This document shows, piece by piece, positions 1 through 470 of a stretch of 500 nt of DNA. Under the pieces are notes generated by a model. It was not told the origin of the DNA, did not search any database, and worked only from the letters and a program-made list of their open reading frames with translations. Numbering within the stretch: position 1 is the stretch's first letter; the number at the start of each line of letters is the position of its first letter. Source of the DNA: Escherichia coli (GTDB taxonomy: Bacteria; Pseudomonadota; Gammaproteobacteria; Enterobacterales; Enterobacteriaceae); NCBI RefSeq assembly GCF_003334335.1, contig NZ_QOWQ01000182.1; one strand, given 5' to 3'. The translations under genes and the position numbers were made by a program.

Positions 1-470
1 TCCGTATCCCAGACCGGCTGCACAAAGATTTCGCCGTTAAACGCATGAACGCCCACACCTTCACGGATAAATTCCGTGAACGTGCGTTTTCCTTCCACGT
101 CGATCTCGCCAAACATCCCTTCTGCGTATTCCGACCAGGCCGCCTCCACCTCATCGACAAAGCTTTTTGCTGCGGTCTCCCGCATCCCCAGCCAGCGCCA
201 GTTCGGACGGTAGCTGATCAGAAACATATGCCCGACAATGTGATCCTTATGCAGAGCCACCGCATTAGCCGCTATTCCGTTATTGCGCACCAGATCATCT
301 GCCCGGGCATTCCCCAGACGCAACGCGGGTAGCAGGGCCGCATCGGCACTCTGCGCCGGTGGCAACCACTCAGCCATTTGCCCGCCAAATCCTGCACCGC
401 CCCCGTTGTAGCTGAGACTCTCACGAAGCGGAACGCCGTTCACATCAATCAGGACAGGCGTTCGTTTCAT
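1..470 (-). CDS. Phage portal protein, lambda gpB family; N-terminal 156 codons, 3'-partial (continues past window position 1)
   Basis: Reverse-complement translation from the ATG complementary to + 468-470 is open to the window edge: MKRTPVLIDVNGVPLRESLSYNGGGAGFGGQMAEWLPPAQSADAALLPALRLGNARADDLVRNNGIAANAVALHKDHIVGHMFLISYRPNWRWLGMRETAAKSFVDEVEAAWSEYAEGMFGEIDVEGKRTFTEFIREGVGVHAFNGEIFVQPVWDT. By-eye alignment with the lambda gpB N-terminus (recalled from memory) shows long conserved blocks: GxGFGGQ, DAALLP, GNARADDLVRNNG, AANA, LHxDHIVG, EVEAAW, KRTFT, IREGV, HAFNGExFVQ, WDT. A GGAG Shine-Dalgarno sits 7 nt upstream of the ATG. Confidence 0.9.
   Translation of the reverse strand, partial: MKRTPVLIDVNGVPLRESLSYNGGGAGFGGQMAEWLPPAQSADAALLPALRLGNARADDLVRNNGIAANAVALHKDHIVGHMFLISYRPNWRWLGMRETAAKSFVDEVEAAWSEYAEGMFGEIDVEGKRTFTEFIREGVGVHAFNGEIFVQPVWDT

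Follow-up and report, generated by a model that had tools for sequence, protein, structure and literature searches.

The window, that is, the whole stretch of 500 bases of Escherichia coli DNA analysed here, carries the start of the gene for the portal, the DNA-entry ring, of a phage 21-like lambdoid prophage of E. coli. The explanation that we regard as best overall, and as probable, is that of a phage 21-like portal protein from which an S49 protease would remove a short N-terminal leader by cutting near L19|S20, with the glycine-rich box that follows being retained. The gene itself is already known, as it is gene 4 of phage 21 (M81255, sequenced in 1993), a homologue of lambda gene B. With a known gene and a known homologue, the discovery value is small; a motif within the leader, described below, would be amenable to testing by lambda genetics.

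The window encodes the beginning of a phage 21-type portal

On the minus strand, an open reading frame starts with an ATG at 470-468 and stays open as far as window position 3, yielding 156 codons. By translation and homology, it represents the 5' part (codons 1-156, positions 1-470, minus strand) of a portal gene of the phage 21 type within the lambda family, the remaining ~1.1 kb of which lie past window position 1. Beginning after the ATG, the frame reads MKRTPVLIDVNGVPLRESLSYNGGGAGFGGQ..., and a longer N-terminal read is MKRTPVLIDVNGVPLRESLSYNGGGAGFGGQMAEWLPPAQSADAALLP.... All 156 residues agree with phage 21 gp4 (100 % identity), and the 500 bases are 100 % identical to Escherichia phage PhiR5_1 and to E. 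coli NCTC9112, and 99.6 % identical to phage 21 (M81255, OL657228). From phage 21 gene 4, labelled 'head-tail preconnector' in M81255, the window differs by two nucleotides over 498 aligned bases, both of them silent, and the two agree in the ATGA overlap with gene 3 and in the annotated ribosome-binding site. Furthermore, the segment is present in more than one third of the complete E. coli genomes (1861 of 5426), nearly always on the chromosome, and is therefore a common prophage gene.

Profile and structure database searches were run with a full-length relative of 530 residues, which is identical to the window protein across the shared part. It matched Pfam family PF05136 (Phage_portal_2) with an E-value of 6e-100 over residues 29-397, and in a search of PDB sequences it retrieved lambda portal protein B with an E-value of 2.5e-214 over query residues 5-523, represented by 8k38 and six further entries, which establishes homology to a solved dodecameric portal. 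The window fragment alone matched the portal family phrog_21 (E = 5e-49). Identity to lambda gpB amounts to 61-62 % at full length (61 % over 521 residues) and to 62 % for the 156 residues within the window.

The surroundings of the start codon fit a portal gene as well. The 3' end of a gpW-like head-tail adaptor gene (phage 21 gene 3) occupies positions 467-500 on the minus strand and ends in ...RRRRPLGVRL followed by the stop, which shares the tetranucleotide ATGA with the portal start; translation of the portal begins at this ATG, coupled to the gpW-like stop. A GGAG ribosome-binding site, read from the sequence, is located at 478-481 on the same strand, 7 nt before the ATG, and corresponds to the site that record M81255 of phage 21 annotates at 2979-2982. 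The gene thus takes the position of a portal gene, between the gpW-like adaptor and large terminase genes on one side and the head protease gene on the other; the full order around the portal was seen in PhiR5_1, phage 21 and NCTC9112, and the gpW-like 3' end lies inside the window itself. A nomenclature problem was met in the 1993 record M81255, where the products of both gene 4 (portal, 2990-4582) and gene 5 (protease, 4572-6077) are named 'head-tail preconnector gp5', a mislabel that has since reached the name of at least one protein from Shigella (P0079, 'Head-tail preconnector gp5').

A protease/scaffold gene follows the portal gene in relatives

The initial annotation had predicted a lambda-like protease/scaffold gene downstream of the portal, beyond window position 1, and had proposed to look there for a gpC-like gene. 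Such a gene was found in every relative checked, directly downstream of the portal in PhiR5_1, phage 21, E. coli NCTC9112 and four distant metagenomic loci, that is, in identical or near-identical or in distant relatives of the window, which itself ends before the gene. A portal gene with nothing of this kind behind it, which the initial annotation had named as a refuting case, was not encountered. In PhiR5_1, the next gene overlaps the portal stop and encodes a protein of 501 residues that is 53 % identical to lambda gpC and matches Peptidase_S49 (E = 2.6e-35) as well as the head maturation protease family phrog_53 (E = 2e-224); in NCTC9112, the PGAP label of the gene is S49 family peptidase. 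Phage 21 gene 5 contains a nested in-frame gene 6 (Nu3-like), mirroring lambda C/Nu3. The phage 21-type protease/scaffold protein (501 residues) is 62 residues longer than lambda gpC (439 residues). In these relatives, the gene immediately downstream of the portal thus encodes an S49 protease, with the nested scaffold annotated in phage 21, as expected where the portal is processed.

The order terminase, gpW, portal, S49 protease, decoration protein and capsid was observed in a phage and in an E. coli chromosome, and lambda has the same gene order as the phage 21 type, with the S49 protease and nested scaffold downstream of the portal. All four distant metagenomic loci display the terminase-gpW-portal-S49 order. 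In L005 and L006, a decoration-protein gene (HDPD) precedes an E-like capsid gene, in L007 a capsid gene is present and no decoration domain could be recognised, and L004 stops short of both genes.

Two further observations concern this part of the genome. In M81255, three repeats of ~105-115 bp, named 'Tri1 box', 'Tri box' and 'Tri3 box', are located at 5542-5936 (genes 5 and 6), within the nested scaffold gene. In addition, three database entries of 748-912 residues (P0077, P0107 and P0115) unite a portal (PF05136) and an S49 protease (PF01343, PF25145) in one polypeptide. They may be genuine fusions, or they may reflect a frameshift or an assembly error where the B and C genes overlap. The phrog_21 portal profile (1362 positions) likewise covers both proteins, the protease matching its positions 502-795.

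The N-terminal leader and its predicted cleavage

Processing of the lambda portal protein from gpB to gpB* is textbook knowledge. The RefSeq annotation of lambda (NC_001416) assigns codons 1-22 to a leader peptide and lets the mature portal begin with G23. The position of the cut differs between sources, from codon 22/23 in RefSeq to 21 or 22 residues within a single paper, which tabulates '22 aa removed from B N-term' and speaks of 'a 21 amino acid peptide' in its text, and which states that the consequence of the removal for interactions is not known (PMC3224144). Modification of gpB by the gpC protease is also mentioned with reference to Medina et al. 2010 (PMC12617516), and the cryo-EM model of the lambda virion is without the first 23 residues, its wing domain comprising residues 24-249 and 368-452 (PMC10721106). 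Literature searches yielded no primary data on the exact lambda cut site.

The initial annotation had described a lambda-type portal N-terminus whose first ~30 residues keep the layout of gpB, and this description held up, as the leader can be aligned to that of gpB with a single gap (PVLIDVNGV-PLRESLS in the window against PTLLGPDGMTSLREYAG in lambda). From this alignment, residues 1-19 (MKRTPVLIDVNGVPLRESL; positions 414-470, minus strand) are predicted to form the leader, and S20 (codon at 411-413, minus strand), which aligns to lambda G23, would be the first residue of the mature portal. The cut would accordingly be expected near L19|S20, which places it between bases 414 and 413 of the window, and the predicted mature N-terminus of the protein, at or near S20, reads SYNGGGAGFGGQ....

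Compared with that of lambda gpB, the window leader is three residues shorter and ~35 % identical, which makes it the least conserved stretch in the pairwise comparison (~6 of 17 aligned positions), yet with fixed anchors. Relatives carry the leader in two flavours, a phage 21 type (...LIDVNGxPLRESLS) and a lambda type (...LLGPDGxTxLREYAG), both of which run into Y-x-G-G-x-x-G-F-G-G-Q. Around the aligned cut, the two types share the conserved context L-R-E-x-x-x-Y-x-G-G-G, whereas the residues at the cut itself differ, being Y-A|G in lambda and S-L|S in the window protein. A leader co-linear with that of lambda and a conserved cut context are what gpB-to-gpB* processing would lead one to expect. 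Processing is documented for lambda alone, and no experimental report of phage 21 gp4 processing was found in the searchable literature; from the comparison with lambda, we infer that the phage 21-type portal is cleaved as well.

The glycine-rich box is predicted to remain on the mature portal

Behind the predicted cut lies a glycine-rich box, YNGGGAGFGGQ, formed by Y21-Q31 and defined by translation, alignment to lambda gpB and conservation within the clade. The initial annotation had placed this motif at 378-410 and the first 31 residues at 470-378, coordinates that proved exact by translation (residues 1-31 correspond to 470-378 and Y21-Q31 to 410-378, minus strand). Lambda gpB has YHGGGSGFGGQ at residues 24-34, identical to the window box at 9 of 11 positions. 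In an alignment of 56 sequences (relatives with 59-88 % identity), G12, L15, G27, G30, Q31 and W35 are invariant, and L7, R16, Y21, G23, G25, F28 and G29 are at least 90 % conserved; furthermore, the box or a close variant occurs in nearly all full-length matches with at least 60 % identity. Judged by these sequence comparisons, the match to the lambda portal is beyond chance.

Further away, the picture changes. A HMMER scan of 1.84 billion cluster representatives returned 7887 relatives at E <= 0.001, and 122 full-length representatives with 30-54 % identity were aligned. The pattern G[GA]GxGFGGQ occurs in only three of these 122 diverse family members, all with at least 46 % identity; it thus characterises the enterobacterial lambda/21 clade and not the family as a whole. 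The other representatives display a looser Y-x-G-A-x-R-x-x-x-E-L, followed by the family-wide W-x-P...S-A-D...L-L-P.

The initial annotation had counted the glycine-rich segment among the first ~30 residues for which it considered lambda-like trimming. The layout is indeed shared with lambda, but trimming of the segment itself is at odds with a lambda leader of residues 1-22 and a virion model that starts at residue 24. As the lambda leader ends at codon 22 and the model begins at residue 24, the box is kept in mature gpB*, and by alignment it is predicted to be retained in the window protein too, at the mature N-terminus and the start of the wing domain. In the corrected reading, the glycine box thus marks the start of the mature portal and not the discarded peptide. 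An AlphaFold2 monomer model built from the 56-sequence alignment (mean pLDDT 59, pTM 0.49, residues 20-71 below 50) was too poor for the leader and the glycine box.

Proposed assembly pathway and alternative explanations

By analogy to lambda, we propose that the portal and the protein encoded next to it, an S49 serine protease whose gene harbours a nested Nu3-like scaffold, enter the prohead initiator together. The S49 protease would then cut off the short N-terminal leader of ~19 residues near L19|S20, leaving a mature portal that would begin S-YNGGGAGFGGQ and retain its glycine box at the start of the wing domain. Besides phage 21 gene 4, the closest known counterparts include lambda gpB/gpB* (PF05136; coordinates deposited as 8k38 and 8xot, among others), in which the leader, the L-R-E context, the glycine box and W-x-P...S-x-D-A-A-L-L-P are co-linear with those of the window protein. 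Distant PF05136 portals (30-45 % identity, metagenomic, as well as PDB 8vhx chain D) belong to the same family and many share the box of the leader (see below), but they are without the GGGxGFGGQ run and have the looser Y-x-G-A-x-R-x-x-x-E-L instead.

Two alternatives concern the cut and its surroundings. The phage 21-type portal could go unprocessed, its leader-like N-terminus remaining on the mature protein, as direct reports for phage 21 were not found and both P1 and P1' at the aligned site are unlike those of lambda. However, the conservation of the leader layout and of the L-R-E...Y-x-G-G-G context, and the gpC homologue of 53 % identity immediately downstream, argue for processing and render this alternative rather improbable. 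It is somewhat more conceivable, albeit still unlikely, that the glycine box, instead of being mainly a structural part of the mature wing domain, provides the recognition signal or the flexibility that allows the S49 protease to cut immediately before it, a role that would be compatible with the explanation favoured here. The box begins one or two residues past the annotated lambda cut and is near-invariant in the enterobacterial lambda/21 clade. On the other hand, it is missing from 119 of the 122 diverse representatives, and two portals that lack it, P0141 and P0166 (the two neighbourhoods examined), still have an S49 gene directly downstream; moreover, in the lambda virion, the box shows enough order for the model to begin at residue 24.

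For the glycine run, a role in nucleotide binding, as a P-loop or a Rossmann-type loop, was also considered, since GGGAGFGG superficially resembles glycine-rich loops, the only point in its favour. The protein belongs to the portals, most members of the family have lost the run, and the spacing of the glycines fits neither GxGxxG nor GxxxxGK[ST]; given this spacing and context, we rejected the idea as having next to no credibility.

A deeply conserved box within the leader

The leader of the phage 21-like portal contains a box of its own, LIDVNGVPL (L7-L15; positions 426-452, minus strand), which is described by the pattern [ILVMF][ILVMF][DN]xxGxP[ILMFV]; the corresponding stretch of lambda is L9-L18, LLGPDGMTSL. 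Among the 122 representatives, this pattern occurs within the first ~20 residues of 21 proteins and nowhere else in 61,922 residues, as compared with a mean of 0.04 in shuffled sequences; a looser form was found in 35 of 122, versus 2.2 in shuffles. By these counts, no other element of the leader is conserved as deeply as this box, which can be traced down to ~30 % identity and thus much deeper than the glycine box. As it is present in 21 of the representatives and the glycine box in only three, the part that lambda discards holds the more deeply conserved element.

An S49 gene lies directly downstream of portals with the leader box (P0137, P0182) and without it (P0141, P0166) alike, so the presence of an S49 gene does not discriminate the box. 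When we searched further head proteins of PhiR5_1 and lambda (Nu1, A, W, C, D, E, FI and FII) for the box, only weak and inconsistent loose matches turned up, and no published description of such a leader motif was found. Tentatively, and with rather low confidence, we suggest that the box might dock the S49 protease/scaffold transiently during prohead initiation, or serve nucleation of the portal ring at that stage in the same way, and be removed thereafter. We regard the leader box as a small lead and as the only mildly new item of the present analysis, the rest being known.

Other features of the window

On the plus strand, an open reading frame of 95 codons at 45-332 runs antisense to the portal gene. 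Its translation matches two small PHROG families without known function, phrog_19427 (E = 3e-13) and phrog_22532 (E = 2e-12), which could speak for a real gene; yet the whole frame falls inside strongly conserved portal coding sequence on the other strand, the scan revealed no promoter-like site, and the annotated records examined (PhiR5_1, phage 21 and NCTC9112) have no gene there. Since such families can come from repeated mis-calls on near-identical DNA, those matched here were probably seeded by recurrent mis-calls, and we deem a real antisense gene very improbable.

In the window as a whole, an Rfam scan gave no match at E-values up to 1, and the promoter scan found none. The terminator scan detected a single terminator-like hairpin with a T-run (TTCACGGATAAATTCCGTGAA CGTGCGTTTT) at 60-80 on the plus strand, within the coding region and antisense to the portal; as 0.3 such sites are expected in shuffles, this hairpin is most likely due to chance.
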